Position numbers and translations under genes: made by a program | From: a virus | IMG/VR virus record: IMGVR_UViG_3300029286_002355 | Span: 96,001-160,000 of that record | Length of the DNA: 64,000 nt | Strand: one strand, 5' to 3' | The notes under the pieces: generated by a model | What the model was told of the DNA's origin: nothing | What the model saw: only the letters and a program-made list of their open reading frames with translations | Databases searched by the model: none | In this document: piece after piece, positions 45,615 through 62,463 of the stretch | Layout of the letters: every line of letters starts with the position of its first letter | Numbering within the stretch: the stretch's first letter is position 1

Positions 45615-45616
45615 GA

Positions 45617-46171: not shown

Positions 46172-46237
46172 ATTAATCCTTTCTGTATAATGCCTTTGTT
46201 CAATTATACTTGAATTTTGTTTTTTTACAAGGAGTTT

Positions 46238-46846: not shown

Positions 46847-46902
46847 TGTGATTGGTCGCATTATTAACATCCATCCCGTAAGATGGTAAAGGAGTTGTTC
46901 CT

Positions 46903-47457: not shown

Positions 47458-47979
47458 TTAACCCTGCTTATTTCTCATGCCCATCTCAGTATTTCTAAGT
47501 GTTTCCAAAATATATGGGTTGGGAAGAATATTTTCATCCAATAAAGGCTCTCTTATATATTCCGATGCAAAAGTAGCAACAGCACCACTTCTCGAAACAC
47601 CCGCATTACAATGAATTAAAAGAAGCATCGGTTCAAGCTTGCGTTCAGCCAAATTTAAGAACTCGATTATTTTTCTGGCATGATCTTCGTTAAAAAGAAT
47701 AATCTTGGGATAAACCGGTTTTATCTTTTCATAATCTTCACCCAAAATATCATCAAAACGGATCGACATAACCATTGTCAATCCATCTTTCTCCAAACTT
47801 TCCATATTTTTCCCTTCAATCAAAAATGGCTCATCAAATCCATTAATTGAAAGCAACGCCCACTTCGGCATCATGGTGGGGACAGGCGACAATCCCATTA
47901 CAATCAGTTCTGCCCCAAATCTATTCATTACCTTTATCTGTTTTATCATACGGTTAATCCTATTGGATGTACATAACAC
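47458..47979 (-). CDS. Protein-tyrosine / dual-specificity phosphatase-fold protein
   Basis: LIHCNAGVSRSGAVA (CX5R), ...PNPYI. Confidence 0.85.
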   Translation of the reverse strand: MLCTSNRINRMIKQIKVMNRFGAELIVMGLSPVPTMMPKWALLSINGFDEPFLIEGKNMESLEKDGLTMVMSIRFDDILGEDYEKIKPVYPKIILFNEDHARKIIEFLNLAERKLEPMLLLIHCNAGVSRSGAVATFASEYIREPLLDENILPNPYILETLRNTEMGMRNKQG

Positions 47980-48455
47980 TGTTTATCGACCACATATAGG
48001 GCATCCGTTCCCCATAACCACAACTTGCAATATTGATAGTTCCCGATTATTTGTTCTGGTCCCATACCGCCACTATCCAACCAAAAATACTTAATCTTAT
48101 TCCACTTATCTCCCATTGCAGAATAAATAGCGTAGTAAACTTCATTAAGAGATGGTTTAAAAAATCCGTAATATCCCCAACGATGAAAAGATATAATTGG
48201 AACAGCGTCCACTTGACCTAAAAAGCCATTCAATTTTACTCTAGGAAACTGCTTATCGTTACCCTCTATCCATGTATAAGCAATTTCTTTAATCGGAATA
48301 TTCTCTCTGTTCTTAAAAGTATATCCTTTGTGATCTTTTTGATCGTAACCAACAACAGGTACTAGTTTCCTTCTCATTTCTTCTGCTAATTCATTGGGTA
48401 CATCTTTAACCAGAATTACATCGTCACTCAGTATACGCATGTCACCTGTGTCCAT
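47946..48455 (-). CDS. Hypothetical protein
   Basis: 169-aa ORF; GGAG SD just after the tmRNA. Confidence 0.65.
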   Translation of the reverse strand: MDTGDMRILSDDVILVKDVPNELAEEMRRKLVPVVGYDQKDHKGYTFKNRENIPIKEIAYTWIEGNDKQFPRVKLNGFLGQVDAVPIISFHRWGYYGFFKPSLNEVYYAIYSAMGDKWNKIKYFWLDSGGMGPEQIIGNYQYCKLWLWGTDALYVVDKQCYVHPIGLTV

Positions 48456-48476
48456 AATTTGCTCCTATGTTTAAAT

Positions 48477-48847
48477 TGGTGGAAGCGAGGAGAGTTGAAC
48501 TCCTGTCACGTATAATTTCAACCAAGTTTCTTTCACATGTTTAGTCTACTGTTTCTGAGACTGATTGCTCGGAGCCAAAATAGACTCACTCCGGACGGTT
48601 CCTTATACCTCAAGCATTTCGTCTTCCCGAAATTCCACAGAGCTAAGCTACTCTGTCCGCACTCTTGTGTCTTATGCTACTCAGGTTTACCAGAATTATC
48701 TTAACCCTTTCACAGGCCACTATTAAGCAGCCATTGCCATTCTAGGAACAGCATTTAATTTTTTGTAATGGATATTTTAAGAGGCCAACCATCATCCTCT
48801 ACATGCAACTGGATTTACGTTACCACGCTCGATACCGTAACGCTCCC
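48477..48847 (-). ncRNA. ssrA: tmRNA, 371 nt, tag (A)AVPRMAMAA*
   Basis: Acceptor stem GGGAGCG/CGCTTCC with G3:U, encoded ACCA 3' end, and T-arm GGAG-TTCAACT-CTCC. Resume context AAATTAAAT|GCT; tag ORF 48752-48723 ends GCT GCT TAA TAG. Confidence 0.95.
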
Positions 48848-48874
48848 AATCTACAATACATTATTTTTAAAACA

Positions 48875-49061
48875 TGAGCATGATGGTTGCTAATCCATCT
48901 GTGGCGTCAACATGCGAGCTTTAAGTCGAGTTAACTAATTGCCCACCACCAGTCGTTGCCTATTGCGAAGCGTGTCGTCAAAACTCTCCAGTTTCCCGTA
49001 GTACGCTCCTGCCACACTTAACTGACTTCGTTGCGTGTCTGCATTTCCACGCCGATGCTCA
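48875..49061 (-). ncRNA. Unassigned 187-nt tRNA-framed structured RNA
   Basis: Terminal stem TGAGCAT/ATGCTCA; D-arm-like GCGTG-GAAATGCAGA-CACGC; T-arm-like GATGG-ATTAGCAA-CCATC; large central domain closed by AGTC-AGTTAA/TTAACT-C-GACT. TATAAT lies at 49070-49075, directly upstream. Confidence 0.6.
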
Positions 49062-49069
49062 TTACATAC

Positions 49070-49098
49070 ATTATACTACAATATACTTAGAAATCAAG
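49070..49098 (-). promoter_or_regulatory. Sigma70-type promoter for the tRNA-like RNA/tmRNA unit
   Basis: TTGATT-N16-TATAAT, predicting a start about 2 nt before the RNA's terminal stem. Confidence 0.65.
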
Positions 49099-49104
49099 TA
49101 TTAT

Positions 49105-49413
49105 TTATGCAAACAATTTAGCCAAAAGCTCTTTAAATTTTATTCCTTCCTTGTAAATTTCTCCAAATTTAACCGCATAACCTTCATCAATCCACGAACG
49201 AAATGCTCCTTCCCACCCTATATCCTTCTCTTTCTCTTTGCTTTTTTCATATTTATATCGATCTATCGCCCGAAGTTGCATTAAAATTCTAGGATCAGGA
49301 TGCGAAGAAATCAAAAACTCCTTAAGAATACAATAATGATCATTTTCACAATATCCCGAACAAACATCTTCTAGAAGTTCTTTATACTCTGCTTTATTTA
49401 ACCGATAACTCAA
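49105..49413 (-). CDS. Hypothetical protein
   Basis: 102-aa ORF with a GAGG SD; TTG start. Confidence 0.65.
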   Translation of the reverse strand: MSYRLNKAEYKELLEDVCSGYCENDHYCILKEFLISSHPDPRILMQLRAIDRYKYEKSKEKEKDIGWEGAFRSWIDEGYAVKFGEIYKEGIKFKELLAKLFA

Positions 49414-49425
49414 TATTACCCTCCT

Positions 49426-49899
49426 TTATTGTTTTTCCATCCAATAAGAAGTTTCACCTCCATAAGTCTTTTCTGAAATCATGCGAAATCCATTTTTTTC
49501 CCAAAACCTTACCGTATCCTGAACTGAAATTAAACAGATTTTTAACCCACTTTTACTGGCTTTGTGAAGAACAGTATTAATTAATCTTTTAGCTATTCCT
49601 CTATCCCGGTATTCTTTTTTTACCCCAAGATCGTGAATGTAGATACAATCTTCTTCAATGTTTTCTTTTATTTTTCCTTTAAGTGGGACTTCTAATCCGC
49701 TGTTATAAGGAAATGCAATAATATATCCGATTAGTTTCCCATCTTCTTCGGCATACATTGAAAGAGTTTTTCTAGCTAAAACCTTGGAAGCCCAATTGTC
49801 AAAACCTTCGTGAAAATTTGACGAATAGCAATCTGCACTTAATTGAGATAATTCTTCCATCTTTTCTAACGGAATATCAACCACAGATTTAATATCCAT
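49426..49899 (-). CDS. GNAT-family acetyltransferase
   Basis: YIHDLGVKKEYRDRGIA (motif A), ...FWEKNGF. Confidence 0.88.
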   Translation of the reverse strand: MDIKSVVDIPLEKMEELSQLSADCYSSNFHEGFDNWASKVLARKTLSMYAEEDGKLIGYIIAFPYNSGLEVPLKGKIKENIEEDCIYIHDLGVKKEYRDRGIAKRLINTVLHKASKSGLKICLISVQDTVRFWEKNGFRMISEKTYGGETSYWMEKQ

Positions 49900-49902
49900 A
49901 TT

Positions 49903-50199
49903 TTATCCCACCATGAATTCAAAACCATCGAGTGGGATATCCTCTGTATCGTTTTTAATGGCATTGAATCGATGTTCCGCTTCTTGCAAAATAGGCCAAA
50001 CACATTTATCCATCATTTCTTTTTCGGGAGTCTTTTTGTTTTCCATTTCTACTAACGCCGATGTCATAGCCCGAAGCGCATTAACGGCTATTTGTTTATA
50101 CAACTCGTCCTTCTCCCTTTCTGCTGTAGGATCAATGATGGGGATTCCTTGTTTGTTAACTAACATTCTCTTTTTTACTCTTTTCTCTCTTTTGTTCAA
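49903..50199 (-). CDS. Hypothetical protein
   Basis: 98-aa ORF. Confidence 0.55.
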   Translation of the reverse strand: MNKREKRVKKRMLVNKQGIPIIDPTAEREKDELYKQIAVNALRAMTSALVEMENKKTPEKEMMDKCVWPILQEAEHRFNAIKNDTEDIPLDGFEFMVG

Positions 50200-50500
50200 A
50201 TTTGAAATCTCTCTCTGCCTGTCTCCACTTCATTACTAAAATGTTGCAAAGAAACCTTTTTATCTCTTCAGTTATTGATTGGCTACGGTTAACGCTTTCG
50301 ATGCATTTTTCTTTCCAAATATGGCATAAAAGAATTTTGTGTCCGTTGGAAAGGTTGGAAAAGTATAAATCATTAACTACATTCGTAAATTCGTTGTAGT
50401 AATTACCCACTTTACGAATATATTTTGGGCTGGCTTCTTTTTCCAGTATTTTTACTAGAATATGAGCCGCTTTCGAATCGCCGTATGTTCCCGCATCCAT
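50156..50500 (-). CDS. Hypothetical protein
   Basis: 114-aa ORF coupled to the upstream gene. Confidence 0.5.
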   Translation of the reverse strand: MDAGTYGDSKAAHILVKILEKEASPKYIRKVGNYYNEFTNVVNDLYFSNLSNGHKILLCHIWKEKCIESVNRSQSITEEIKRFLCNILVMKWRQAERDFKFEQKREKSKKENVS

Positions 50501-50781
50501 TATTTAACTATAGCCTTTATTGGTAATTCACGAAGTTTTGTCCAAACAGCTTCAATAATGACCTCAGCAGCATCGTCTGGATGTTCTTTTCCTGTATCTT
50601 TTTTAAGAACTTCGTTGTGAGCCCAAAGACCAAACGAATTTTGTATTGCTCTGTTCCAACCGTGATGGAAACCTATTACGTCATCTTTTTCTCTACTCCT
50701 AACGTATGCTTTATCTTGATCGCTCATTCTGCTAATAAGTTCATCAACGGCTTCTTTTACGGATGGTGGTTTTTCTTTCAT
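50500..50781 (-). CDS. Small conserved hypothetical protein (DUF6794-like)
   Basis: FHHGWNRAIQNSFGLW...HPDDAAEVII pattern. Confidence 0.55.
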   Translation of the reverse strand: MKEKPPSVKEAVDELISRMSDQDKAYVRSREKDDVIGFHHGWNRAIQNSFGLWAHNEVLKKDTGKEHPDDAAEVIIEAVWTKLRELPIKAIVK

Positions 50782-51035
50782 TTTTTATTCAAACTTTCAT
50801 CCACATCCTTAATAAAAACCTGACCGCAAGGAGATCCCATCCATTGCACAATCATGTTAGCAGTTTTAATCTGTTCTGGAGTTGGCGTCGATCTAACATT
50901 AATTTCCCCTGAGATAAGGTACTCAAGGGTATGACTCCACTTATTAAGCTTTAGCCACGCATCCGCAAAAGCCTTTTCTTTAGGATTGTTTTCAAACCGA
51001 TATTCAGAAAATCCATCTTCATTTTGATTTTTCAT
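50778..51035 (-). CDS. Hypothetical protein
   Basis: 85-aa ORF with an ATGA overlap. Confidence 0.6.
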   Translation of the reverse strand: MKNQNEDGFSEYRFENNPKEKAFADAWLKLNKWSHTLEYLISGEINVRSTPTPEQIKTANMIVQWMGSPCGQVFIKDVDESLNKK

Positions 51036-51036
51036 A

Positions 51037-51261
51037 TTATGTCCATTTTAACTGTTTTAATACCTTACCCTTACGATCTAATACGGCCATAACTTTGTTC
51101 GCTTGGTCTTCGTGCATTTCTTTATGAAAATAACTATATAATCCAAGTGCTCTTCTTAGAATTTCACACTTAGAACGGCCTTCTTTTTTCGCCATTTCGC
51201 TAAGCAACCCATGAACTTGATCGTTAAAATCTACACTATATTTCATTTTTCTCCTTGGCAA
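51037..51261 (-). CDS. Ribbon-helix-helix (CopG-like) DNA-binding protein
   Basis: YSVDFNDQVHGLLSEMAKKEGRSKCEILRRAL. Confidence 0.75.
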   Translation of the reverse strand: MPRRKMKYSVDFNDQVHGLLSEMAKKEGRSKCEILRRALGLYSYFHKEMHEDQANKVMAVLDRKGKVLKQLKWT

Positions 51262-51443
51262 TCTACTTTTGTAGAAGCAACTAAATCGCTTTTAAGAACG
51301 TCTAAACTCTCTCTAATTTTATTTTCCAAGACGCAACCCTTGCAACTATCGGCACAAATCCCTGACGGCCATCTCTCATGGTGCACAGAAGAGATCATTC
51401 CGTCTATTGCGGAGATTAACACCAATCTCTCTTTCTGTCGCAT
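51243..51443 (-). CDS. Small hypothetical protein
   Basis: 66-aa ORF with a GGAGG SD and a CxxxCxxC-like cluster. Confidence 0.5.
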   Translation of the reverse strand: MRQKERLVLISAIDGMISSVHHERWPSGICADSCKGCVLENKIRESLDVLKSDLVASTKVDCQGEK

Positions 51444-51510
51444 TATCTTCCTCCGTCAACTTCCTTTACGATTTACCAGTATCCGCCCGTAAATGTAGGA
51501 CGTTTCCCCT

Positions 51511-51558
51511 TTAATTTACTTCACTCTCAACCGGAGTAAACCATAATTCACAATCGTA
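51511..51558 (-). pseudogene. Orphaned 3' fragment of the SET-domain gene (YDCELWFTPVESEVN*)
   Basis: In frame with GEELRFH at 52969 once the IS is removed; supplies the conserved Tyr of the SET ELxFxY motif. Confidence 0.82.
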
Positions 51559-51563
51559 ATCAA

Positions 51564-52796
51564 CTACCCAGCGACTAAAGATCGCTGGGTTTGCATCTTC
51601 TGAAGACACAATTGGCTAGTTGATGGTAGCCTGCCCATAAAGTTCAGTCCACCATCAATAGGTATACCAAACGATACAGGGCGTTTTACTCCTTTGGCCT
51701 CTTTTATTTTGGAGTATTTGTTGGCAATATTTATTGATGCATTCCAATCTGCATCAAAAACCTTGCCATCTGAGGCATAATACCTGCATCCCCTTCTTTC
51801 TCCTTTCTCAATTCCTCTGTAGTCTAATTGAGACGTTAAATAGGGGTTAACCGTTACTACTCTTTTTCCATTGAGTAGTGCCTTGTAGGTCAATATTCTT
51901 TGTAGTTCAAAGAATGACATTTGACTTAATCTATTTTTACTCGATTTGCCTTTCTTGTAGTTTTTCTTTCCTAGGTTATTTTTCTTTAAAGAGGATAAGT
52001 CTTCAAGAACTATAGTATTCATTTTAGTCTTTAGTATCTCGTTGACTAACTGGTAACTAGTGTTTTTGTTCTTGTTTTTCTCTTTTCGTTTTAGTTTCTT
52101 GAGCTTAGTTTTTGCAGAGTGAGATCTATTTATTTTAAGATTTGAGTTTAATTGTCTTTTTAGATATCTTAATTGTCTTTTTTGTTTTAGAAATTGCTTG
52201 TCAGAAATAGCAATACCTTCAGAAGTAGTTATGAGTCTTCTTTCTCCAAGATCTACTCCAAGATAACCGTTTTCAATATGTACTGGTTCTGGAACTGAAA
52301 AGGATACTGCCAGCCAGAACACGCTATCCTTAAAGAAAATCAGTGGATCGCAAAGAGAATAGGTTTTTAAGAGTTTAGAGAATTTAGGATATGGTTTAAA
52401 ATCGCATACAATTCTCTTTCCGGTGGTTGTTAATTTAATTTGATTGTTATCAAGAAAGGTATAGATTCGCTTGTCTAACCTAAGAGATAGGTTAATTTGC
52501 TTGGCAGATTCCGTTAATTTAGATCTTTGTTTATTAGATTGTATAGTTTTGTAGGTGGCATAAACAGAGTCTTTGGCTCGTATTATAACCTGAGAAGGAC
52601 AATCGGGGAACAACTTTCTGCACTGATGATAGTTCTTGTCGTGAAGCAGTTTCTTATCTAATTTCTTGGCTTTAAAGGCATATTCTGACATATAATTCCA
52701 TATTTTCTGATGCTCAAGAAGAGTATTATAGAGCAGATCAAACTCTTCTTTACTCTTTGGAACAAGCTTAATATTATATGTTATAACTGAGTTCAT
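51564..52796 (-). CDS. tnpB: TnpB RNA-guided endonuclease (IS200/IS605), zinc finger degenerate
   Basis: YLGVDLG (RuvC-I), IVLEDL (RuvC-II), FDADWNASINI (RuvC-III); no CxxC pairs between II and III. Confidence 0.93.
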   Translation of the reverse strand: MNSVITYNIKLVPKSKEEFDLLYNTLLEHQKIWNYMSEYAFKAKKLDKKLLHDKNYHQCRKLFPDCPSQVIIRAKDSVYATYKTIQSNKQRSKLTESAKQINLSLRLDKRIYTFLDNNQIKLTTTGKRIVCDFKPYPKFSKLLKTYSLCDPLIFFKDSVFWLAVSFSVPEPVHIENGYLGVDLGERRLITTSEGIAISDKQFLKQKRQLRYLKRQLNSNLKINRSHSAKTKLKKLKRKEKNKNKNTSYQLVNEILKTKMNTIVLEDLSSLKKNNLGKKNYKKGKSSKNRLSQMSFFELQRILTYKALLNGKRVVTVNPYLTSQLDYRGIEKGERRGCRYYASDGKVFDADWNASINIANKYSKIKEAKGVKRPVSFGIPIDGGLNFMGRLPSTSQLCLQKMQTQRSLVAG

Positions 52797-52851
52797 AATT
52801 ATTACTTCTATAATTATTTACTCTTTCCTTCTTATTTCTTTGATTATTTTC

Positions 52852-52879
52852 TTGCATTCAGGAATTAAAGATGTATAAT
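52852..52879 (+). promoter_or_regulatory. Outward-facing promoter inside the IS left end
   Basis: TTGCAT-N16-TATAAT with extended TG, followed by an AAGGAG SD and an 11-codon ORF ending in the left-end hairpin. Confidence 0.6.
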
Positions 52880-52968
52880 AGTAGAAAGTTAAAGAAAGGA
52901 GATGAGTGGATATAGTAACTCGCTTACCTCCCCCACACTAAAGATGTCGGGGTTTCTGCTCGCATTAA

Positions 52969-53274
52969 ATGAAAACGAAGTTCTTCTCCATATTGTATAT
53001 TCCGTTTAGCATACGCCCTAATTGTTCCATATTTTTTAAATCTCTTTAAATATATATTTGGTTTTTCGGAATGATTCATAAAATTAATCAGCCCCATAGC
53101 AAGACAATCATGTTTATTTGACCAAGCCATACTATAATCTTTTAACTCTGATTTTTCTATTTTAGAATACGTATATGGAATCACTGGATTTTCTACAATT
53201 AGGCTTCCCCGACTTATAAATTTATCTGTAAATACACCTTTCCCACAACCTTTAACGTCTTTTAAGTATATCAT
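52969..53274 (-). pseudogene. SET-domain methyltransferase, 5' part, interrupted by the IS200/IS605 element
   Basis: KGCGKGVFT, INFMNHSEKPN (NHS motif), AKRNIQYGEELRFH. Start at ATG 53274 (AGGAG SD). As inserted, the ORF reads 14 IS-derived codons to a stop at 52924. Confidence 0.85.
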
Positions 53275-53282
53275 TTTTCTCC

Positions 53283-53660
53283 TTAACAGTTCTTTTCTTC
53301 CCACATAGGATTCTTCTCAAAATCCAACTCTTTTCTAGATTTACCCGCATTGCCCGTAAATGGAGGATGTTTTTCCTCAAATTTACATACTTCGCCCAAT
53401 GACATATCTTTAAATTCTTTTTCCTTGCCTTCCATTTCCCTCAACGCTTCTTCTGCCCATTCCCATCCGTCTTTCACTAAGCCATCTCTTCCTCTAACTT
53501 CTAAACTGGTATATTTAGGATCTAGTTTTGACCTATTAACAATCTTTTTAAATTTGTTGCAAAACCCCCTATATTGCCAAAAATCCATATTGCCATATAT
53601 CTTAAGAGCATGGATGGCAATTTCAAGTTTTTGTTTATCGGTGAGTTTCTTTACTTTCAT
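53283..53660 (-). CDS. Hypothetical protein
   Basis: 125-aa ORF with a GAGG SD. Confidence 0.65.
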   Translation of the reverse strand: MKVKKLTDKQKLEIAIHALKIYGNMDFWQYRGFCNKFKKIVNRSKLDPKYTSLEVRGRDGLVKDGWEWAEEALREMEGKEKEFKDMSLGEVCKFEEKHPPFTGNAGKSRKELDFEKNPMWEEKNC

Positions 53661-53668
53661 TTTTCCTC

Positions 53669-54190
53669 CTATGGTTTTGGCAAAATTCTAGCCTTAATAT
53701 CTTGAATGATCTTATTTTTGTCAAGATCAACTAAATTCTTGTTATTTTCAATAAAGTCGCCATAATCTTCTCCCTCAACGTATTCTCTAGCAAATATGTT
53801 ACACAAGAACTTCGCATCGGACTCGCTATCATTACCTATAGCCGAATGATTTAACGTATTCCAAGTATTTCCATCTTTGGGAATATATGCCCTTAACTCT
53901 TTTCCACTAAAGTAGATACAAAAGTAAATCGGAATTTCCAAGTCACCGCCTGCGTTACAACCTAACAAAATCATCCCGTTATCTAGTTCCTGATATCCCA
54001 GTAAATGTTTTTTGTCTTTCCATCCATATTCTTCGCTTATAGATACGTTCTCCATATCAAATTCTACTTTTTCAAGATCTGTAGCTATTCGAGGAGTTAG
54101 ATGTTTAAGTTGATACTTGTCCCCATCCCAAATTGCATCAACTTTATCTCTAAATTCTCTTAACGAAATAGGTGCAAAATATCTAGCCAT
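53669..54190 (-). CDS. Hypothetical protein
   Basis: 173-aa ORF with a GGAG SD. Confidence 0.7.
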   Translation of the reverse strand: MARYFAPISLREFRDKVDAIWDGDKYQLKHLTPRIATDLEKVEFDMENVSISEEYGWKDKKHLLGYQELDNGMILLGCNAGGDLEIPIYFCIYFSGKELRAYIPKDGNTWNTLNHSAIGNDSESDAKFLCNIFAREYVEGEDYGDFIENNKNLVDLDKNKIIQDIKARILPKP

Positions 54191-54199
54191 AACATCTCC

Positions 54200-54544
54200 T
54201 TACTTATCTATCTCTGACCAATTGGGATTATCTTTTTTAGCTTTTTCTATAAGATATTTATAGTTTCTCCATGCATACCTTATCGCTTCATGTTTGCAAT
54301 CACAACTTCTGTAACGATAGAATTCTGCCGCTAAATTTTTATTGTCAATATTATCTCCGGGAGCTTTAAACGTAAAAAGTCTACCGTTAGAAACTATGAC
54401 ATATCCGGGAGGGGGCTTGGTATGTCCATATACGACATTAATCAAACTAGATTCGTCATAACTTACCCACATAAAAAAAGAAATAAGCAAAGTAGCCCCC
54501 GCAACAAGCACAACACTGACTGGATCTATATATTTTAAAAACAT
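54200..54544 (-). CDS. Membrane-anchored hypothetical protein
   Basis: N-terminal hydrophobic helix VSVVLVAGATLLISFFMWV. Confidence 0.6.
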   Translation of the reverse strand: MFLKYIDPVSVVLVAGATLLISFFMWVSYDESSLINVVYGHTKPPPGYVIVSNGRLFTFKAPGDNIDNKNLAAEFYRYRSCDCKHEAIRYAWRNYKYLIEKAKKDNPNWSEIDK

Positions 54545-54552
54545 AATTCTCC

Positions 54553-55167
54553 TTATAATTTTGTTGGTTTAAGTGGATAAAATGCCTTGGGAAGAGAATC
54601 ATTATATAGAAAGTCAATGTACTTAGCAGGAACATCATCAACCAGCCATACACCATTATTTGAAAGAAAGAAATCATATCCTTCTTTTATCATAGCTTCT
54701 GTATCAATACGAAGAACATGGGGACTTCCATGCCTAGAACCAACCTTTACCGCCGTATCATGATCCTTAGAGAGATGAACATGATTACGTTGCCTCTTAT
54801 CTAAGCCATTAATTCTAATAGATGGAATGAATTGCTTCGCCGTACCATGAAAGAGAAACTTGGGCGGTATATTAGAATCTAACTCTAAATCTACATCTAC
54901 CGAATGACCTTGACAAGCCCTAATCTGCCACCCATCTTCGCTATACTCAAAACGTTTCTTATCGTTATCAGCAACAACTTCATCAAGAATAGCCTTGGTA
55001 ATCGGTTCAAACCCTTCCGCTTTTTGAAAAGTATTACTTCGGTCAATTAGTTCTTTCACATCAACCCAACCATTCTTGTCCAAGGCAATCCCAATCGTTT
55101 CGGGTTTATGCCTTAGAACCATGGCTAGAAACTTACTAACCCCAACCAATTCTTTTTTCAACGCCAT
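54553..55167 (-). CDS. kptA: RNA 2'-phosphotransferase (Tpt1/KptA)
   Basis: SKFLAMVLRHKP, DKKRF, IRACQGHS, LFHGT, RNHVHLS, NNGVWL. Confidence 0.95.
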   Translation of the reverse strand: MALKKELVGVSKFLAMVLRHKPETIGIALDKNGWVDVKELIDRSNTFQKAEGFEPITKAILDEVVADNDKKRFEYSEDGWQIRACQGHSVDVDLELDSNIPPKFLFHGTAKQFIPSIRINGLDKRQRNHVHLSKDHDTAVKVGSRHGSPHVLRIDTEAMIKEGYDFFLSNNGVWLVDDVPAKYIDFLYNDSLPKAFYPLKPTKL

Positions 55168-55230
55168 ATTAACTCCTTTTCAACATTGTAAGACAACTTA
55201 ATTATATTTCAACCATTTTCTTTGGAAATT

Positions 55231-56205
55231 TTATCGTTCGAAAAACTCGTTAGCATTTTGATAAATGAATCCGCATCGATTACTAAAGGTTTTATCGCTT
55301 GTAGAATCACCAACATAAAAGCATTTATTAGGATTTAATTTATATTTTTCAACTAAATAGACACCTAATCCGCTTAGTGGCTTACGGCAATAACATCTAA
55401 TGGGAAAAGAATGATGTGGACAATATACATAAGCAATATCAAATCCGATAAGCATATTAGTTTGATTGAAGCAAGCCTTAGCCTGAGTCTCGCTAAGATC
55501 CCCCTTCTCAATACCACTCTGATTGGATACGCCTAAAAGAAAATAACCCTCATAAACATACTTTTGGAGAATTTTCTTTGTATTGGGTAATATTTCAATA
55601 TCTTCTGGTTTTAAGGGATACTTGCCACCACTCTTTGTTTTTCTAAGGGTTCCATCATAGTCTAAAATAACAGCACGATTATCATAACCCGAAGGAAGAG
55701 GCTTCCTAACAAAATCAATTTCTATTATGTCAGAAAATCCTTCATCCATGGTAGGCTCTTGGAAGGCTTTCTTGTAGGCGTAAAGGGCTATAGAAGGAAT
55801 ATTACAGGGATCTTTATCTAACTTGCTACCATTAGGCCCTAAAATATCATTTAATGGGAATAGAGGCTTTGCGGGATCTAAGACATAGCGTTTCAAAATT
55901 CGATAAGCGGCATTATATTGTGCATCTTCTATTTTAGTTGTTACCCAAATGCATAATACTTTAAATCCATACTTTTTTGCTATATCAATTACACACTTCC
56001 TAGATTCTTTGGTTCCATAGGTATTATCAAGAACAAATTTTTCCTTGCCGCTATTTATTTGACTTATTAGTTTTTCGTTGAGCTTTTCAAGATTGCAGCC
56101 CATCTCGTCCCGATTCAGCCTGACATAGCCTTTATCGGTGTATGATTTTACGTGGGATGATTTACCTGCACCCTGTATCCCACATATGATTACAATTTCT
56201 TTCAT
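55231..56205 (-). CDS. Bifunctional polynucleotide kinase / HAD 3'-phosphatase (PNKP-like)
   Basis: N-terminal GIQGAGKS P-loop with LDNT; C-terminal LDYDGTL, VSNQSG, CRKP, YVGDSTSD. Confidence 0.9.
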   Translation of the reverse strand: MKEIVIICGIQGAGKSSHVKSYTDKGYVRLNRDEMGCNLEKLNEKLISQINSGKEKFVLDNTYGTKESRKCVIDIAKKYGFKVLCIWVTTKIEDAQYNAAYRILKRYVLDPAKPLFPLNDILGPNGSKLDKDPCNIPSIALYAYKKAFQEPTMDEGFSDIIEIDFVRKPLPSGYDNRAVILDYDGTLRKTKSGGKYPLKPEDIEILPNTKKILQKYVYEGYFLLGVSNQSGIEKGDLSETQAKACFNQTNMLIGFDIAYVYCPHHSFPIRCYCRKPLSGLGVYLVEKYKLNPNKCFYVGDSTSDKTFSNRCGFIYQNANEFFER

Positions 56206-56762
56206 CGCCCCTCTCTTTCTCTTTCTTTTTCGGATGGTAGAATTTTAACATCCTCTATTTTGAAAACCGCCAACCCTTCATTATCCATTCCGCTTATCTT
56301 TGCCTTTTCCCAAAGAATATTGTCTAGTCCTGTTCCAACATTTACACGACCCCAATTCCTGTAAACTGACGCAATCGCATGGCCCTTAAACGGAGATATC
56401 GCAAGAAGCTCGTCCCAATTCTTATCACAATATAGACGGCGCAACCATATTTGAATTAACAATGTCCATTCTTTAATATCACCGCTACGCAATTTATTCA
56501 TACATTGAGTCAGTTTGTTTTTGCATGTTTTCTCATGTTCTTTACCTGTCCATCCAAAATGCCCTAGTAATTTTCTAGAAGTGCAACCCGCTTTCATCGC
56601 AATCTCAATAAGTTTCTTATCGGGATTCATCTTTTTAATAAGATACATGGCAAACGTATTAAGAAAAACTTCGGCTCTCTCGCTTTCTTCCTGTTCTCTA
56701 TACATATCTGTAATACCATCGCTCATAATTGGCTCCTTATTTCTTTGCCTTAAATAAATCAT
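56202..56762 (-). CDS. Hypothetical protein
   Basis: 186-aa ORF with an ATGA overlap; the start may be the later Met. Confidence 0.6.
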   Translation of the reverse strand: MIYLRQRNKEPIMSDGITDMYREQEESERAEVFLNTFAMYLIKKMNPDKKLIEIAMKAGCTSRKLLGHFGWTGKEHEKTCKNKLTQCMNKLRSGDIKEWTLLIQIWLRRLYCDKNWDELLAISPFKGHAIASVYRNWGRVNVGTGLDNILWEKAKISGMDNEGLAVFKIEDVKILPSEKEREREGR

Positions 56763-56955
56763 TTAGAAAATCTGGCACATCATACTTGCCCGAAGCTGCT
56801 GATTTACTATAATTAGCTAGATCTTCAAAAACCTTATATTTACCCATACATTCCGTGCACAGTAATACAGACCCCTTTTTAAGCTTACCTTTGGTCATCT
56901 CCCCAAGATAACACAAGCATTTTTTACATTTTAATTCCATTGGATTATTTTTCAA
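56737..56955 (-). CDS. Small zinc-ribbon hypothetical protein
   Basis: CKKC...CTEC. Confidence 0.6.
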   Translation of the reverse strand: MKNNPMELKCKKCLCYLGEMTKGKLKKGSVLLCTECMGKYKVFEDLANYSKSAASGKYDVPDFLNDLFKAKK

Positions 56956-57256
56956 ACAAGTTGTTATCTCGACAATAATTATCTGCTTGTTTTTCTGTCA
57001 TGATTCTTCCTCTTACGGCTACCATAACAGCAGAACTGATAATAAAAAATTGGCTTCTTGCCCATAATGGTTTACCCTTATCGCTAAGTTCTTTAACTAT
57101 TTTAGAATACGAAGCACTAAGCTTACGGTTTTTAATTAAATCCCTAAGAGACTCGTCATCAAGAGATTCTACCATTAAAACAGTGTAAATACCGTCATCC
57201 GATAAAAATGGATGTTTCACTCTATCGTTATCGCTAATAAGCATGTTTGCCTCCAT
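56945..57256 (-). CDS. Hypothetical protein
   Basis: 103-aa ORF. Confidence 0.55.
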   Translation of the reverse strand: MEANMLISDNDRVKHPFLSDDGIYTVLMVESLDDESLRDLIKNRKLSASYSKIVKELSDKGKPLWARSQFFIISSAVMVAVRGRIMTEKQADNYCRDNNLFEK

Positions 57257-57261
57257 AATAA

Positions 57262-57486
57262 TTATTCTGTTAGTCTCAAAAGATGGGGACGAATACCGTA
57301 GCAGCTTTGCATATCGGGTTCTCCTTCGGGATGGACAATAGCAAAAATTTCTTTGGTTTCGTAACGGACATTAACCCATTTCAAAACTACTCTTTTGTTA
57401 TTAGTAGAATCAATATAGATTTGTCCCGGATGCAACTGAACCAGATCATCAACTTCAACTTCTGTTTTTTGTATAGTTCTTTTCAT
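57262..57486 (-). CDS. Hypothetical protein
   Basis: Start re-set to ATG 57486 (GAGG SD); the upstream ATG falls inside the RNase P RNA. Confidence 0.6.
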   Translation of the reverse strand: MKRTIQKTEVEVDDLVQLHPGQIYIDSTNNKRVVLKWVNVRYETKEIFAIVHPEGEPDMQSCYGIRPHLLRLTE

Positions 57487-57501
57487 AGTTACCTCAATAA
57501 G

Positions 57502-57736
57502 TGAAAGCGAATACCTCATAACCCGAATTCTGTTTCTCTTCTATCATTTGACTCACTTTCGTGGCAGGTTCTTATCTCCTGCTGCACCAACCCGACCATC
57601 AACGTATAGCTAACCTACTACGGTCTATTTGGCTTGCTCCTTCATCGGTTATAACAGGTTTCCCCTCCCGGCTTAAGCTAAGGAGTTCGGAGTTTCCTCT
57701 GCTTTATGGCAGCGATAGATCGAATATCCGTTTTCA
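57502..57736 (-). ncRNA. rnpB: RNase P RNA (rnpB-like), minimal form lacking most of the specificity domain
   Basis: 5' GAGGAAACTCCGAA (57699-57686) and 3' ACAGAATTCGGGTTAT (57533-57518) form the P4 helix with its bulged U. P2 TCTATC/GATAGA, P3 CTGC/GCAG, P5 followed by GGAGCAAGCCAAATAG, and an L9-like GGGGAAACC are also present. Confidence 0.85.
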
Positions 57737-58027
57737 TCCTTTATTAACTATAACCCATTTCTCAATTATTTCAAGTTCTTTTTTTGCCCCAATGTATTTT
57801 TTAATAGCTTCTATTACTTCAGTTGGAACGGCTGTTTCCCATATTTTTACCGCTTTTGTTCTTTTATAACGATCTTTATCGGTTTCAAAACAGTGTATTA
57901 AATTACCATCAAGGTTAATAGCTACTTTAAGTTTTGGAATATAATATTCTTCAATTTGTCTTGTAAATCCATGAGCACGATCCAATATGCTATCACATAT
58001 TTTTATTTTATACATTTCTGCTTTCAT
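57734..58027 (-). CDS. Hypothetical protein
   Basis: 97-aa ORF whose stop abuts the RNase P RNA 5' end. Confidence 0.6.
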   Translation of the reverse strand: MKAEMYKIKICDSILDRAHGFTRQIEEYYIPKLKVAINLDGNLIHCFETDKDRYKRTKAVKIWETAVPTEVIEAIKKYIGAKKELEIIEKWVIVNKG

Positions 58028-58230
58028 GATACTTTGAAACCCCCTATCTCTTCATTCGTAATTTTTCTATCGGTTTTAAGTATTGAACAGTTGAAAACAA
58101 TTCCTTCAACGTCAGATTTACCAAGGTCTACGCTGACATTCTGATAACCCATTCCGCTTTCGGGTAATTCCTGAAGTGTTTTAATCCACTTTTCATTTAA
58201 CTGTAATGAATATGCTCTTCTTAGATTCAT
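58024..58230 (-). CDS. Small conserved hypothetical protein
   Basis: WIKTLQELPESGMGYQ motif; GGAG SD; promoter at 58249-58256. Confidence 0.65.
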   Translation of the reverse strand: MNLRRAYSLQLNEKWIKTLQELPESGMGYQNVSVDLGKSDVEGIVFNCSILKTDRKITNEEIGGFKVS

Positions 58231-58249
58231 GATCTCCTTTTATATAGTA

Positions 58250-58582
58250 TTATACAGAAATAAAAACGATAGACTTGGGATAATTATGGCCTACATAATC
58301 TTTTGCTGTAGATGAAAAATATTGGAACTCTTCTGGCGGTGAAATTCCCATTCCCCAATAATCTTTGTAATTCTTGCGAAAGTAGAATATTTCTGGATTG
58401 GACAGGATATAGCAACTATATCGACTGCTATCTTGAAGGATCACTTCCAAGATAGAGGGAAGGATACGGATAATTTTCTCGTTATCAAAAAAACTTTGAC
58501 CACCAACTGCTTTCCCGAATTTGAGACAGAAAAACCTACATAGCATTGCCTCTGCACTCATATGAGTAATTGCCAGACTCAT
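58250..58582 (-). CDS. Hypothetical protein
   Basis: 110-aa ORF. Confidence 0.45.
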   Translation of the reverse strand: MSLAITHMSAEAMLCRFFCLKFGKAVGGQSFFDNEKIIRILPSILEVILQDSSRYSCYILSNPEIFYFRKNYKDYWGMGISPPEEFQYFSSTAKDYVGHNYPKSIVFISV

Positions 58583-58616
58583 AGGGTTTAATTCTTAAAA
58601 AGATTTAAGTTTCCTT

Positions 58617-59021
58617 TTAAGCCATATAACCTGTCAACCTAAGAAAATTTCTTATAACAGGCCACTTTTGCCATGTTTTAAATCCATCAATATAAAGACA
58701 GGTTTCTGCTGCTTTACCATGCCACCCATAAACAAGAGCAAAAGCAGGGAACATATCCATGAATTTTTTACTCACGTGTTCGCTTAAGGGCTCGTCAACT
58801 ACAACATCTACAATATCTTTCATAGGAACATATCGAACTTTTTCGTGGCATTTACATTTAAGTGTTTCCGTATGAACCAAATACGAAATTCCATCCGGCC
58901 CACATTCTTGAAACATTCTCTTTTTAATATCTTTGTCTTCCGAATAGGTCAGCAAAAGCCAAGGATCATACACGTTTTCAAAATGAGTACGGATGGTTAT
59001 TTGTACAGGATATACAATCAT
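58617..59021 (-). CDS. Hypothetical protein
   Basis: 134-aa ORF following the upstream stop. Confidence 0.55.
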   Translation of the reverse strand: MIVYPVQITIRTHFENVYDPWLLLTYSEDKDIKKRMFQECGPDGISYLVHTETLKCKCHEKVRYVPMKDIVDVVVDEPLSEHVSKKFMDMFPAFALVYGWHGKAAETCLYIDGFKTWQKWPVIRNFLRLTGYMA

Positions 59022-59023
59022 TT

Positions 59024-59248
59024 CTATATTCCCATATTCTCAAAATAGGAGTAATCTAATATTGGCCGTTTAGTAGCTTTTGCCATATGTTTAAGAACCC
59101 ACTTTATTCCCTTGATTTCTTCGGAAGTAATATCAATAGGATCTACCGTACAAGAAACAGGCTTGTCTTTCTTATAAAACACTTCGTGAACGGCATACCA
59201 AGTATTTTTCCCCTTAGTATGCCTCAATATTCTATAATTCCAAGACAT
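59024..59248 (-). CDS. Small conserved phage protein (MSWNYRI... family)
   Basis: Start re-set to ATG 59248 (TAATG overlap with the endonuclease stop); WNYRI...YAVHEVFY pattern. Confidence 0.65.
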   Translation of the reverse strand: MSWNYRILRHTKGKNTWYAVHEVFYKKDKPVSCTVDPIDITSEEIKGIKWVLKHMAKATKRPILDYSYFENMGI

Positions 59249-60372
59249 TATTTTTCTTTTTCCTCCGTTTCTTGTTTTGCCAATTTTTTCATTGCCCATC
59301 CAACCCTAGATAGCGTATATCCTGTTGATTTAATAATTTCACTCTTGATTAATCCTTGGTTAAGCATCTTTTTAATAGTTTCCATAACGATAGGCGTTTT
59401 TTCTCTCTCTGAAACATATCCTAAATCAACTTTATTCCATTTCCTAGACATAATAGGCAAATTCATTCTAATAGCTTCTCTCTTCATTGATTTTAGCAAA
59501 TAGTTATCATATATGCCAAAATCAAGATAACGTCTATTAACCAAATCAACCACCCTGTCAAAACAACGCACATAGCATCTTGGGTCAACACCATTGTTTT
59601 TAAAATTGTTAATTAGAAACGCATTAAATTTTCTATATATGCCCAACCAACTATCGTGGCACATTAGTCTCATGTAAGCAGCATTACAGTCTTTTGTATG
59701 ATATATACACCCATCTCCGTCAATTAATCCAATCAACATTGACAACATTAAATCTTTATTTTTTTCTATAAGCGATATGTTTGGTGGGTTATATGTTTTA
59801 TTGCTCTGAATTGAAAACATGCTGCATAGCTTGGGAACACCATTCTTAGAATAAATACTAACTGTTACAGAATTATTGGTATTAGGTTTCATATCAGGAG
59901 AGGAAACAAAATTAGCAAATCTACGAACAACATCTTCATCTTTTTTCGCCAAAGTAAGGACGCATTTTTTTGCTTTTAAATTAAAATGACCATCCGATAA
60001 CAATAAACCTATCCAGTAGCAAGATATAGGGTTAAGATCTAATAGCGGCGATATATCTCCCTTTCCCCTAATAAATTTTATTTTAAGCCTGCTAGCAACG
60101 GAAATAATACTTGATTTTGGTCTAAGTGGCAAAAGTTGGCTAACTAACTTCCATCCTCCACGTGGATATTTATCATACAATATTCCAATTTCTTCGCTAC
60201 TCCAACTCCTAGTGTTTCTAGAAAGCTTAAAAACTCTATAGGCTCTAGACTGTATCCCTACCCACGTTCTTTTAGGGAATTTATTGATCAATTCTTGTTT
60301 ACTTAATTTAGAATAGTTATCTTTTAATACTTGATCTTCTTCTTTTGACCACCAATTTATTTTTTCTAACAT
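59248..60372 (-). CDS. Free-standing LAGLIDADG homing endonuclease with N-terminal Myb-like repeats
   Basis: YWIGLLLSDGHF and MLIGLIDGDGCI motifs; WSKEEDQVL and WSSEEIGIL repeats; C-terminal HTH-like end. Confidence 0.88.
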   Translation of the reverse strand: MLEKINWWSKEEDQVLKDNYSKLSKQELINKFPKRTWVGIQSRAYRVFKLSRNTRSWSSEEIGILYDKYPRGGWKLVSQLLPLRPKSSIISVASRLKIKFIRGKGDISPLLDLNPISCYWIGLLLSDGHFNLKAKKCVLTLAKKDEDVVRRFANFVSSPDMKPNTNNSVTVSIYSKNGVPKLCSMFSIQSNKTYNPPNISLIEKNKDLMLSMLIGLIDGDGCIYHTKDCNAAYMRLMCHDSWLGIYRKFNAFLINNFKNNGVDPRCYVRCFDRVVDLVNRRYLDFGIYDNYLLKSMKREAIRMNLPIMSRKWNKVDLGYVSEREKTPIVMETIKKMLNQGLIKSEIIKSTGYTLSRVGWAMKKLAKQETEEKEK

Positions 60373-60424
60373 ATTAATTTATTCTATAAAAAGGCACCAA
60401 TTCCTTCAAATAAAATAGTTTTTT

Positions 60425-60994
60425 TCATAGATCATGTTTTGACCCATCGGCATCTTCTTTCTCTTCTTTCTCTTCATTATCTTTTCCATCTGGTATTTCG
60501 TCGGATTCTTCATCGTTTAGGTCTAAACTAGGCATTAATTTTGTATTTAGCTTAGTGCCTTTATCCATCAAGTCTGGCAAACCATCTTTTTTATCAAACC
60601 AATTTACACCAACCGAGTCTAGTATAGCCTTCCAGTCCTCACAATCGTGCTTAATTAACCTCTCGTAGTCTGGATGAACATGGAGCAATTCATGAAAAAT
60701 AATCCACTGCTTTTGTCTCATGGTCCACGCATTCCAGTCACTCCAGAAGACTTCAATTAAATATCTTACCGGAATATTATGGACCTGAAATATAGCTTTT
60801 TCCGCTCCTTTAATTGGCTTAATTTTAGCAAGGGTCTTGTTCTTTTCGCTTCTTTCTACGTTTTCAATTCCCATTACTATAATATTGTCAGGTTGCTTTA
60901 TACACCACATAAATTCTGGCTGATTTTCGCAAAGACCCTTAATCATTTCATCTGCTTCTTCTACTTTTTTATATACTCTAGCTTTTCTTCCCAT
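60425..60994 (-). CDS. Putative phage metallopeptidase
   Basis: YLIEVFWSDW...IIFHELLHV (HExxH)...KHDCEDW. Confidence 0.75.
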   Translation of the reverse strand: MGRKARVYKKVEEADEMIKGLCENQPEFMWCIKQPDNIIVMGIENVERSEKNKTLAKIKPIKGAEKAIFQVHNIPVRYLIEVFWSDWNAWTMRQKQWIIFHELLHVHPDYERLIKHDCEDWKAILDSVGVNWFDKKDGLPDLMDKGTKLNTKLMPSLDLNDEESDEIPDGKDNEEKEEKEDADGSKHDL

Positions 60995-61181
60995 GTTTCT
61001 CCTTATTGTTATCTTCTTCGATCAATTCCATAATCTTTGCAGTTGCTTTTTTTGACGGATTGGGTTGCTTTTTGAGAACCAAACCAATAACCATTAGTGT
61101 TTCTCTATCTGACAAGTTCCCGTTTTTCCAATCGCTAAGAACTTCTTTAATTAGTTTTAGTTTTTTGATTGTTTTTTTCAT
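60978..61181 (-). CDS. Hypothetical protein
   Basis: 67-aa ORF with overlaps on both sides. Confidence 0.5.
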   Translation of the reverse strand: MKKTIKKLKLIKEVLSDWKNGNLSDRETLMVIGLVLKKQPNPSKKATAKIMELIEEDNNKEKHGKKS

Positions 61182-61435
61182 TCTCCTACATCTCCATTTT
61201 CTATTATGGCTCCATCTTCTCTTGAATCCAAATATCTTCTCCTGAATTCATCTGCACAATGATTGGCTGCATATACAGTATCATGTAATTGAGTGTATCT
61301 ATACTCCTTATCCTTCATGTATCGTTTCATCAGTTTAAAGATACAATATTCAAGCTCTCCTTTCTTATCGATTTTTTGAATCCCATTAAGATATAGGTCA
61401 AATTTCTCTCTATCTTTTACGGCAATGTATGGCAT
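61178..61435 (-). CDS. Conserved phage protein (DUF6899-like)
   Basis: MPYI...DR...GELEY...EFRRRY...ENGDV; AGGAG SD before ATG 61435. Confidence 0.7.
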   Translation of the reverse strand: MPYIAVKDREKFDLYLNGIQKIDKKGELEYCIFKLMKRYMKDKEYRYTQLHDTVYAANHCADEFRRRYLDSREDGAIIENGDVGE

Positions 61436-61460
61436 ATGATTTCTCCTTGTTTCTGATGTA

Positions 61461-62114
61461 TTATACAGAAGGTTCAGCGTCAAGGAGATCTTTTTCTAAA
61501 TCTCTTTTGCGTTGAAGAAAATTATCTTTCCAATAATTCCACTTGAATTGATCACATCCATCAATTTCTGCCCAGTAATCATTGGCCTCCGAAAAATCAA
61601 TAATTTCTCCATGCTCAACCATCTGAATTCCAAATATCAAAATCCTTAGCGAATGAAAAATACTCTTCAATCCTCTTTCTATATCCATTTCTAAAAGCTT
61701 AATCTTCCCTTTGTGCCAAGCATCATGAGACTGCGATAAAAAAGCTTTCTTTAGCTTACCCTTGTCAATCTTGAAAACTTCTTTAAACTTTTCAGACTCT
61801 TGAACAACCGCAAAAGATGGAGCATAAATACATTCCAAATTAACCGCTCGATAATTCCATAAATCGTCTCGAAATTTGTCGGGTGTAACAATATGGAGGT
61901 TATACTTACTGTCTCTAATTTCCTTCTCCCTGTCTAAACTGCAAGCTACTACCATAAAGTCATAGTCTGAGCCGGGATGATCGGTTCCATAAACCCTTGA
62001 ACCATAAAGATATATAGCACGTATTTTATGTTCGGGTAATTGGGAAAGAGAAATGATTTCGTCTTTAAAAAACGATAGTTCATTTAGTCGGAATTGGACA
62101 GTAGATAAGCTCAT
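61461..62114 (-). CDS. Pol-beta-type nucleotidyltransferase domain protein
   Basis: IYLYGSRVYGTDHPGSDYDF (GS...DxD); start set at ATG 62114. Confidence 0.82.
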   Translation of the reverse strand: MSLSTVQFRLNELSFFKDEIISLSQLPEHKIRAIYLYGSRVYGTDHPGSDYDFMVVACSLDREKEIRDSKYNLHIVTPDKFRDDLWNYRAVNLECIYAPSFAVVQESEKFKEVFKIDKGKLKKAFLSQSHDAWHKGKIKLLEMDIERGLKSIFHSLRILIFGIQMVEHGEIIDFSEANDYWAEIDGCDQFKWNYWKDNFLQRKRDLEKDLLDAEPSV

Positions 62115-62118
62115 GGTA

Positions 62119-62463
62119 TTACTTTCGTATAAATAAAATAGATGGATTTTTAAGAGCACAATAATCAACTATTTTGGTTTCTCCGGTGTTTATATCTCTT
62201 AAATGAGCGGCTTTTCTTCCAATTGTCGTTTCAACATTTTCTAACCTAAAGATACTTCTCCCGATGACCACCAGAGTACCTTTTTTTGGGATTTGCCAAT
62301 TGATAGGGATATGAGCTGGTGAATAAAATAAAATACGGGTATCAAGAGGTTCTTTGAATTTACCTCCATCATAACCCATAATGTTGCCATACATATCCAA
62401 AGGAGATTTCTTCTTAACAGATGATTGTATCCATCCGTCTCCATATGTCGGTACTAATGCCAT
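62119..62463 (-). CDS. Hypothetical protein
   Basis: 114-aa ORF right after trxA. Confidence 0.55.
   Translation of the reverse strand: MALVPTYGDGWIQSSVKKKSPLDMYGNIMGYDGGKFKEPLDTRILFYSPAHIPINWQIPKKGTLVVIGRSIFRLENVETTIGRKAAHLRDINTGETKIVDYCALKNPSILFIRK

Follow-up and report, generated by a model that had tools for sequence, protein, structure and literature searches.

A half-size RNase P RNA related to bacterial type A in a virus-classed lake-water record

The record, the locus and the fold of the RNA

The window, by which we mean the whole 64,000-nt stretch of DNA analysed here, consists of bases 96001–160000 of an IMG/VR virus record (186 kb, 36% G+C, CheckV completeness 82%) whose source DNA is lake-water metagenomes. 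The record encodes a DnaE-like polymerase with at most 39% identity to any GenBank phage protein, together with an SbcC-like protein, an NAD ligase, RecJ, homing endonucleases and TnpB, and PHROG scans of its largest ORFs returned replication and repair functions only. All ORFs of at least 450 aa lie on the minus strand, those named by PHROG being mostly replication or repair genes. Neither a terminase (Terminase_6N, PF03237) nor an HK97-type capsid protein (PF05065) was matched in the 186-kb record. What supports the viral label is therefore the IMG/VR classification together with the gene content, and the record may be a fragment that covers the non-structural part of a larger phage genome.

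RNase P RNA is the ribozyme that trims new tRNAs, and in bacteria it usually measures 350–400 nt. On the minus strand of the window, a 238-nt stretch (57736 to 57499) holds a mini RNase P RNA of ∼233 nt (57503–57735), the outer P1 pair of which joins G57735 to C57503. The RNA exactly occupies the gap between the TGA stop of the upstream minus-strand ORF (57736–57734) and the ribosome-binding site (GAGG) and start codon (ATG) of the downstream ORF (57495–57484). The catalytic half of an RNase P RNA is complete at this locus, and the tRNA-reading half is represented by a 41-base stub only.

Searching the region with the Rfam model for bacterial type A RNase P RNA (RF00010) aligned model positions 1–367 with 57503–57731, that is, end to end, at 50.1 bits. 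The E-value was 1.9e-14 in a permissive local scan of 57300–57950 and 1.3e-15 across the whole 186-kb record, and the match is not a chance one. The covariance-model check proposed in a preliminary description of the locus, which had been made from the sequence without database searches, was thus positive from end to end, albeit below the curated gathering score of 100 bits. Because of this cut-off, a default Rfam scan of the window reported the tmRNA (Table 1) only and passed over the RNase P RNA. That the score reaches just half of the cut-off is explained by ∼140 model positions, those of the specificity domain, which have no counterpart in the RNA. The archaeal RNase P model scored the RNA region at 29.7 bits, compared with the 50.1 bits of bacterial type A, and neither the type B model nor the type T model (RF02357) gave a match at E ≤ 10. 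A blastn search of the window RNA against GenBank phages likewise returned no match.

Table 1. Positions of the mini RNase P RNA elements and of neighbouring features in the window
Feature	Position	Strand	Basis and remarks
Sigma-70-like promoter candidate, TTGAAA-16 nt-TATAGT	57747–57774	−	10/12 matches; predicted start ∼5–10 nt before P1
P1, 5′ strand	57723–57735	−	Read from sequence; pairs with 57503–57515; one A–C mismatch, three G–U pairs
P2, 5′ strand UCUAUC	57714–57719	−	CM alignment; pairs with 57540–57545 (GAUAGA)
P3, minimal 4-bp hairpin (CUGC/GCAG) with 6-nt loop	57699–57712	−	Sequence
J3/4 (GAGGAAA) and P4 5′ strand AAC(U)CCGAA	57686–57699	−	CM alignment; bulged U at 57691
P5	CUCC 57685–57682 with GGAG 57640–57637	−	Flanks the 41-nt remnant
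Specificity-domain remnant, 41 nt	57641–57681	−	Sequence; same plan of stem plus inner hairpin in relatives
P6 pseudoknot	57680–57676 with loop L17 57611–57607	−	Covarying
P7-like stem in remnant	57672–57668 with 57648–57644	−	Sequence
GAAA-capped hairpin in remnant	57665–57656	−	Sequence
J5/15 (GCAA), P15, P16, P17	57584–57637	−	CM alignment
GGU in internal loop L15 (P15/P16)	57592–57590	−	CM alignment
First hairpin between P15 and J18/2, 5 bp, 9-nt loop	57582–57564	−	Sequence
Second hairpin, P18-like, 3 bp, GAAA tetraloop	57563–57554	−	Sequence
J18/2 AGUCAAAU, followed by P2 3′ strand	57546–57553	−	CM alignment; columns near-invariant in family alignments A1 and A2
J2/4 (ACAGAA), P4 3′ strand UUCGGGUU and the conserved A after it	57519–57533	−	CM alignment
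Thg1-like tRNA 5′-end repair enzyme	44067–44951	−	PF04446, 1.6e-29
tmRNA of the phage, candidate substrate, encoded CCA end	48477–48847	−	RF00023, 88.5 bits, and ARAGORN
Tpt1/KptA RNA 2′-phosphotransferase	54553–55167	−	PF01885, 2.3e-50
Polynucleotide kinase-phosphatase (PNKP)	55231–56205	−	PF08645 and PF13671; ∼1.3 kb downstream of the RNA
Pol-beta-type nucleotidyltransferase	61461–62168	−	Pfam

The universal catalytic core is present, with J3/4, P4 and its bulged U, J5/15, J18/2 and the ACAGAA of J2/4, as are the helices of the type A catalytic domain (P1, P2, P3, P5, P15, P16, P17 and the P6 pseudoknot). Conserved motifs stand in register throughout (GAGGAAA, the bulged U of P4, GCAA in J5/15, AAAUAG in J15/16, GGU in L15, J18/2 and ACAGAA). 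All features that the preliminary description had listed were found at their positions on the minus strand. The 5′ strand of P4 (57694–57686) pairs 8/8 with UUCGGGUU (57527–57520), which ACAGAA immediately precedes, and U57691 is bulged, as had been claimed; P2, the tiny P3 and P5 are in place; and the figure of 41 nt between the two P5 strands (57681–57641) is an exact count. The covarying P6 pseudoknot and P16/P17 come in addition to that list. The region previously called P18-like does exist but proved to be two hairpins, the second of which alone is GAAA-capped. Similarly, the GAAA-capped hairpin of the remnant is there, but its earlier name, P9-like, implies an unproven homology.

With 41 nt between the strands of P5, the P7–P14 specificity domain and its regions for the T-loop/D-loop elbow were not found. 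The shrunken S-domain noted earlier is thus real, but its size is typical of the phage family described below rather than unusually small. The GAAA hairpin at the P18 position recurs in relatives and has an additional hairpin in front of it; P8, on which the GNRA loop of a P18 normally docks, is missing. The same two-hairpin insert was observed in contigs L056, L071, L081, L084, L089, L091–L094, L105, L111 and L113, and many other members are without it. The hairpin adjoining J18/2 reads as GAAA-capped in L071, L081, L084, L091, L093, L105, L111 and L113, but not in L089, L092 and L094. MFE folding, whether plain or guided by constraints, failed to reproduce the comparative structure, and the MFE was no more stable than that of shuffled sequences (z −0.79), as expected for a pseudoknotted and AT-rich RNA.

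Relatives and covariation

Pattern searches of viral and metagenome contigs brought up ∼40 mini RNase P RNAs related to the window RNA, which aligns with these family members throughout the core. A first pattern, which combined the 5′ strand of P4 (any base at the third pair) with ACAGAA..CGG at a spacing suited to the mini form, picked out six genuine family members (five distinct sequences) in viral contigs, and the third P4 pair was complementary in all six (G–C in five, C–G in one). Seven more were found in metagenome contigs using a pattern for the AAC/GUU variant. A P15–P17 pattern, in which P4, P2, P1, P5, P6 and P17 were left unconstrained, matched 69 viral loci, ∼37 of them mini RNase P RNAs. 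Carriers of the family include many IMG/VR records of 200–476 kb as well as a terminal-repeat record that is rated complete by CheckV. When 40 viral records were searched with RF00010, 13 had matches (43–83 bits), and no full-size RNase P RNA was found in any of the 40.

Other searches were less productive. Exact and degenerate P4 patterns returned nothing from viral contigs, or chance matches in coding sequence; two-gap patterns built on the spacing of the window RNA found nothing in viral or metagenome contigs; and among the matches listed for the P15–17 motif in genome contigs, all 80 were chance. A 23.5-kb viral contig with such a chance P4 match (L012) holds, within 2.9 kb, a GOLLD RNA (285 bits), a tmRNA and eight tRNA genes (coordinates listed: 1243–1652, 2455–2778 and 201–970, all on the minus strand). 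In contigs of four lake metagenomes, the RNA region recurred in identical form in a second lake sample, and no variants were seen.

In GenBank, an unannotated stretch of a 735-kb uncultured huge phage (LR756501.1 / LR756503.1, 181389–181530, minus strand) is 72% identical to the family member in L086 and is presumably another mini RNase P RNA. The closest relative contig that we found for the record itself, L032, shares the tmRNA and a PNKP that is 59% identical; Rfam, motif and blastn searches of its 59.7-kb fragment revealed no RNase P RNA, which makes the gene dispensable or mobile within the lineage. In the openly searchable literature we came across no RNase P RNA encoded by a phage, and none is mentioned in the huge-phage paper, in a comparative survey of 224 jumbo phages in which RNA repair is treated, or in a 2026 review of jumbo phages. 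The window copy is a further member of an apparently undescribed family of phage RNAs, and the family is widespread among phages. Particular to the window copy are the C–G third pair of P4, the two-hairpin P18 region and the very small P3, as well as a DnaE-type phage background and a position among RNA-repair rather than tRNA genes.

The relatives allowed covariation to be assessed helix by helix. Of 40 sequences, 34 form all eight P4 pairs and carry an ACAGAA-like hexamer directly 5′ of the 3′ P4 strand; this J2/4 hexamer serves as an independent check of the P4 register. The outer three pairs occur as AAG/CUU, AAC/GUU (window), AGG/CCU, ACU/GGU, AGC/GCU, AGU/GCU and AAU/AUU, and the inner five also vary freely. 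The compensatory change to AAC/GUU proposed in the preliminary description is therefore real, being one of at least seven compensatory P4 variants among ∼40 related RNAs, and the conserved, covarying P4 that it expected of homologues was observed.

For a more general view, we projected the helices of the window RNA onto a MAFFT alignment of 21 sequences that had not been fitted to structure (A2). Standard pairs were formed in 95.3% of 990 cells, compared with 32–40% when the 3′ partner was slid by 1–3 columns. Double changes were present at 42 of 49 pairs, and none of 500 shuffles matched the observed values. By helix, the figures were as follows: P1 (96% of cells paired, 8/8 pairs double-changed), P2 (95–98%, 6/6) and P4 (100%, 6/8); P3 was paired in 95% of cells, P5 in 98%, P6 in 94% and the P7-like stem in 80%, and P15, P16 and P17 reached 92–100%, again with double changes. 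Some of this evidence is partly circular, as it had entered retrieval or boundary choice: complementarity decided where P1 was taken to end in the relatives, the P15–P17 retrieval pattern had set the P16 core and L15 (leaving P15, P17, P6 and the fourth P16 pair free), and another pattern had set the AAC/GUU pair. Covariation is nevertheless seen in each of P2, P5, P6, P15 and P17, which played no part in retrieval. For P2, looking for the partner at any position gave no significant result with single sequences; the informative tests were the fixed register beside the conserved GC and the alignment-based count. Judged by these alignments, every helix is under selection.

Several members deviate from the common plan. 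The P3 hairpin differs greatly in length among relatives, and P18 is present in part of the family only. Two copies, L113:3690–4110 (−) and L041:1240–1640 (−), look circularly permuted: J3/4 and the 5′ strand of P4 come first, and the 3′ strand of P4 is followed by a 5–7-nt linker, the 5′ strand of P2, the conserved GC and a long P3 hairpin, with no P1. The permuted copy in L113 starts directly after a tRNA-Asp. To our knowledge, no permuted RNase P RNA gene has been described. In a sub-lineage made up of L066, L075 and L090, whose RNAs adjoin arrays of 25–38 tRNA genes, the P4 strands AAUUGG and CCAAUU pair without room for a bulged U. The member in L107 (near 2022–2064, read on the minus strand) seems to have ∼140 nt of AT-rich sequence after P15 before J18/2 resumes, an interruption that may be an insertion or a large extra domain. 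Finally, the mini RNA in L035:7800–8284 (+) lies between a tRNA-Ile and a tRNA-Val, and its P1 strands abut or overlap the tRNA ends, so that the maturation of the three RNAs must be coupled.

Genomic setting and proposed function

Taking these data together, we think it likely that the locus is a functional gene for a phage RNase P RNA of half size, derived from type A, with a complete catalytic domain and a 41-nt stub in place of the S-domain. Homology, architecture, selection on each helix and the family's linkage to phage tRNA genes are all read from sequence. The identity proposed in the preliminary description is borne out: the virus-classed record holds a minimal RNase P RNA, bacterial in type and centred on the catalytic domain, with a compensatory change in P4. 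In support of this stand the covariance-model match, ∼40 homologues that covary strongly in every helix and the link of the family to phage tRNA genes.

This link is the main indirect sign that the family serves tRNA maturation. A tRNA gene lies within 300 nt of the RNA in 21 of 39 distinct relatives and within 2 kb in 26 of 39, and several relatives sit inside arrays of 10–38 tRNAs. The window copy is not beside a tRNA; its nearest tRNA-like gene is the tmRNA, 8.7 kb off, and the five tRNAs of the record (three tRNA-Gly and two tRNA-Ala) start 13.7 kb away. All five tRNAs and the tmRNA encode their 3′ CCA. In bacterial RNase P, the GGU of L15 pairs with the 3′ CCA of the tRNA, and the encoded CCA ends thus match the retained GGU loop and its predicted binding.

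The window copy's distance from tRNA arrays, its place among RNA-repair genes and in a co-oriented gene block with no terminator after the RNA, and the reduction of the S-domain to 41 nt could also be read as signs of altered specificity. The core would then be active, but with T-loop reading lost it would act mainly on non-tRNA targets such as phage polycistronic transcripts, tRNA-like elements or host RNAs, rather than in general pre-tRNA maturation. We consider this unlikely, given that most family members lie in or beside tRNA arrays, that the CCA-binding loop was kept in a phage whose tRNAs and tmRNA all encode CCA, and that enzymes reduced to the C-domain still cleave pre-tRNA-like substrates (PMC5839562). 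A working catalytic subunit for tRNA-like substrates accounts better for these observations.

Within the window, the RNA belongs to an RNA end-processing cluster on the minus strand (44067–62168) that comprises the Thg1-like enzyme, the tmRNA, Tpt1/KptA, PNKP, the RNase P RNA and the Pol-beta nucleotidyltransferase, interspersed with a TnpB-like gene (51564–52796) and a LAGLIDADG endonuclease gene (59248–60372). The small proteins flanking the RNA belong to no Pfam family and do not travel with it at other loci. The earlier statement that no rnpA-like gene is recognisable holds for the whole 186-kb record, in which PF00825 finds nothing at E ≤ 10. This makes host RnpA the likely partner of the RNA.

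A phage without rnpA might instead use the catalytic domain as a decoy that titrates the host RNase P protein and stops host tRNA maturation, with no need for enzyme activity. In favour of this, the side of the C-domain that contacts the protein in the bacterial holoenzyme is kept in the mini RNA. The conservation, throughout a very divergent family, of nucleotides that serve catalysis rather than protein contact (the bulged U, the adenosines of J3/4, ACAGAA and the L15 GGU) argues against a role of this kind, and linkage to the phage's own tRNA genes favours the making of tRNAs, not their blocking; we therefore regard it as very unlikely. It is scarcely credible that the RNA is a decaying, functionless relic of a captured host rnpB, as its sub-threshold Rfam score, its large internal deletion and its absence from the relative L032 might suggest, since all remaining helices are intact, 42 of 49 pairs carry compensatory changes across ∼20 divergent homologues, the same stub architecture is found in many unrelated contigs and an identical sequence is present in a second lake sample. 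Each of these three readings is less likely than a working catalytic subunit, probably one that uses host RnpA.

For such a subunit we infer catalysis, substrates and a protein partner as follows. The RNA would be transcribed from the minus strand, either from its own upstream promoter or by excision from a surrounding operon transcript. Upstream of P1, a sigma-70-like promoter candidate is present (Table 1), but this is weak evidence because such sites are not more numerous in the region than in shuffled sequences; no terminator was found after the RNA, which lies inside a co-oriented gene block. The transcript would fold into a core of P1–P5 and P15–P18, locked by the long-range P4 and P6 pairings. 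The GGU loop of L15 would bind the acceptor end of CCA-bearing tRNA-like substrates, and 5′ leaders would be removed at an active site formed by P4, J3/4, J5/15, J18/2 and J2/4. Likely substrates would be the phage's three tRNA-Gly, its two tRNA-Ala and its tmRNA, and possibly host pre-tRNAs. As the T-loop-reading module is gone, the acceptor stem, the CCA end and the protein should determine which substrates are chosen, and this protein would likely be host RnpA. The use of host RnpA, the processing of phage tRNAs or tmRNA and an altered specificity, which the preliminary description had offered as possibilities, would be consistent with the missing rnpA, the encoded CCA and the retained GGU.

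It is also conceivable, though rather unlikely, that the mini RNase P forms the RNA part of a host-independent line for phage tRNA supply and repair. It would be active alone, or together with a phage protein that has escaped recognition, or with RnpA that it hijacks. Alongside the Thg1-like enzyme, PNKP and Tpt1, it would see to the maturation and repair of phage tRNAs and tmRNA while the host was shutting down or attacking the tRNA pool of its own cell. If so, the wide variation of P4 and the bulge-less and permuted members would mean that natural RNase P can accommodate alterations of its topology and active-site helix well beyond those seen in cellular enzymes.

One of two universal ribozymes, RNase P RNA counts as a housekeeping gene of cells, and the only natural forms lacking the specificity domain that are known to us come from one archaeal family. 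A large and strongly selected phage family of bacterial type without the S-domain would add a ribozyme to the translation-related functions of big phages and would give a natural test set for substrate recognition by the catalytic domain alone. It would also reveal which P4 positions are truly fixed, since the third pair flips freely in the family, and would offer small scaffolds of natural origin to RNase P engineering. In annotation, it means that default Rfam thresholds overlook mini RNase P genes in phage genomes, including the largest published ones.

Comparison with known RNase P RNAs

Bacterial type A (RF00010), to which E. coli M1 RNA (rnpB) and the Thermotoga maritima P RNA belong, is the best-scoring model for the phage RNA. 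Both share the order P1-P2-P3-P4-P5 followed by P15-P16-P17-P18, the long-range P4 and P6, the conserved single-stranded motifs and the CCA-binding GGU loop. In contrast to the 350–400 nt of type A, the phage RNA has ∼233 nt, with P8–P14 lost and 41 nt left in their place. It further differs in a P3 of 4 bp, in an extra hairpin before the P18-like one and in a third P4 pair that is C–G instead of G–C, and it is encoded by a virus-classed record without rnpA and scores 50 bits against a cut-off of 100 bits.

The preliminary description had drawn a parallel with the short type T RNAs of the Thermoproteaceae. According to two reports (Lai et al. 2010, PMC3012483; Chan et al. 2012, PMC3579882), type T RNA (Pyrobaculum; RF02357) is a natural form of ∼200 nt with nearly no S-domain that is still the enzyme. 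The parallel holds as an analogy, in that both RNAs have undergone a near-total natural loss of the specificity domain, but RF02357 gives no match to the phage RNA and type A scores best. Moreover, type T comes from archaea and has archaeal protein partners, whereas the phage RNA carries P6, P16/P17 and the L15 GGU, which are hallmarks of bacterial type A. On these features, the two are convergent reductions that belong to separate families.

A closer functional parallel is provided by the C-domain of the E. coli RNA alone ('Eco CP RPR'), which cleaves substrates both in the presence and in the absence of C5 protein (Mao et al. 2018, PMC5839562). Its activity needs a P6-like pairing, and P18 is dispensable (PMC5839562). 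The phage RNA is likewise a catalytic domain without an S-domain, and its family keeps a covarying P6 while many members are without P18. Unlike Eco CP RPR, which is a laboratory deletion of reduced efficiency, the phage RNA is a natural, selected gene with a conserved stub of stem plus hairpin. The activity of the C-domain alone (PMC5839562) makes a role as a working catalytic subunit plausible for the phage RNA.

The nearest published items are the diverged RNase P RNAs of CPR bacteria, which, like that of Mycoplasma fermentans, score below threshold in Rfam and are without the peripheral helices P12, P13, P14 and P18 (Lui et al. 2021, PMC8172020). These reduced cellular RNAs, unlike the phage RNA, keep most of the S-domain and are the sole enzyme of their cells. 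Conversely, the GGU motif, which is missing in about two-thirds of the CPR forms (PMC8172020), is present in the phage RNA.
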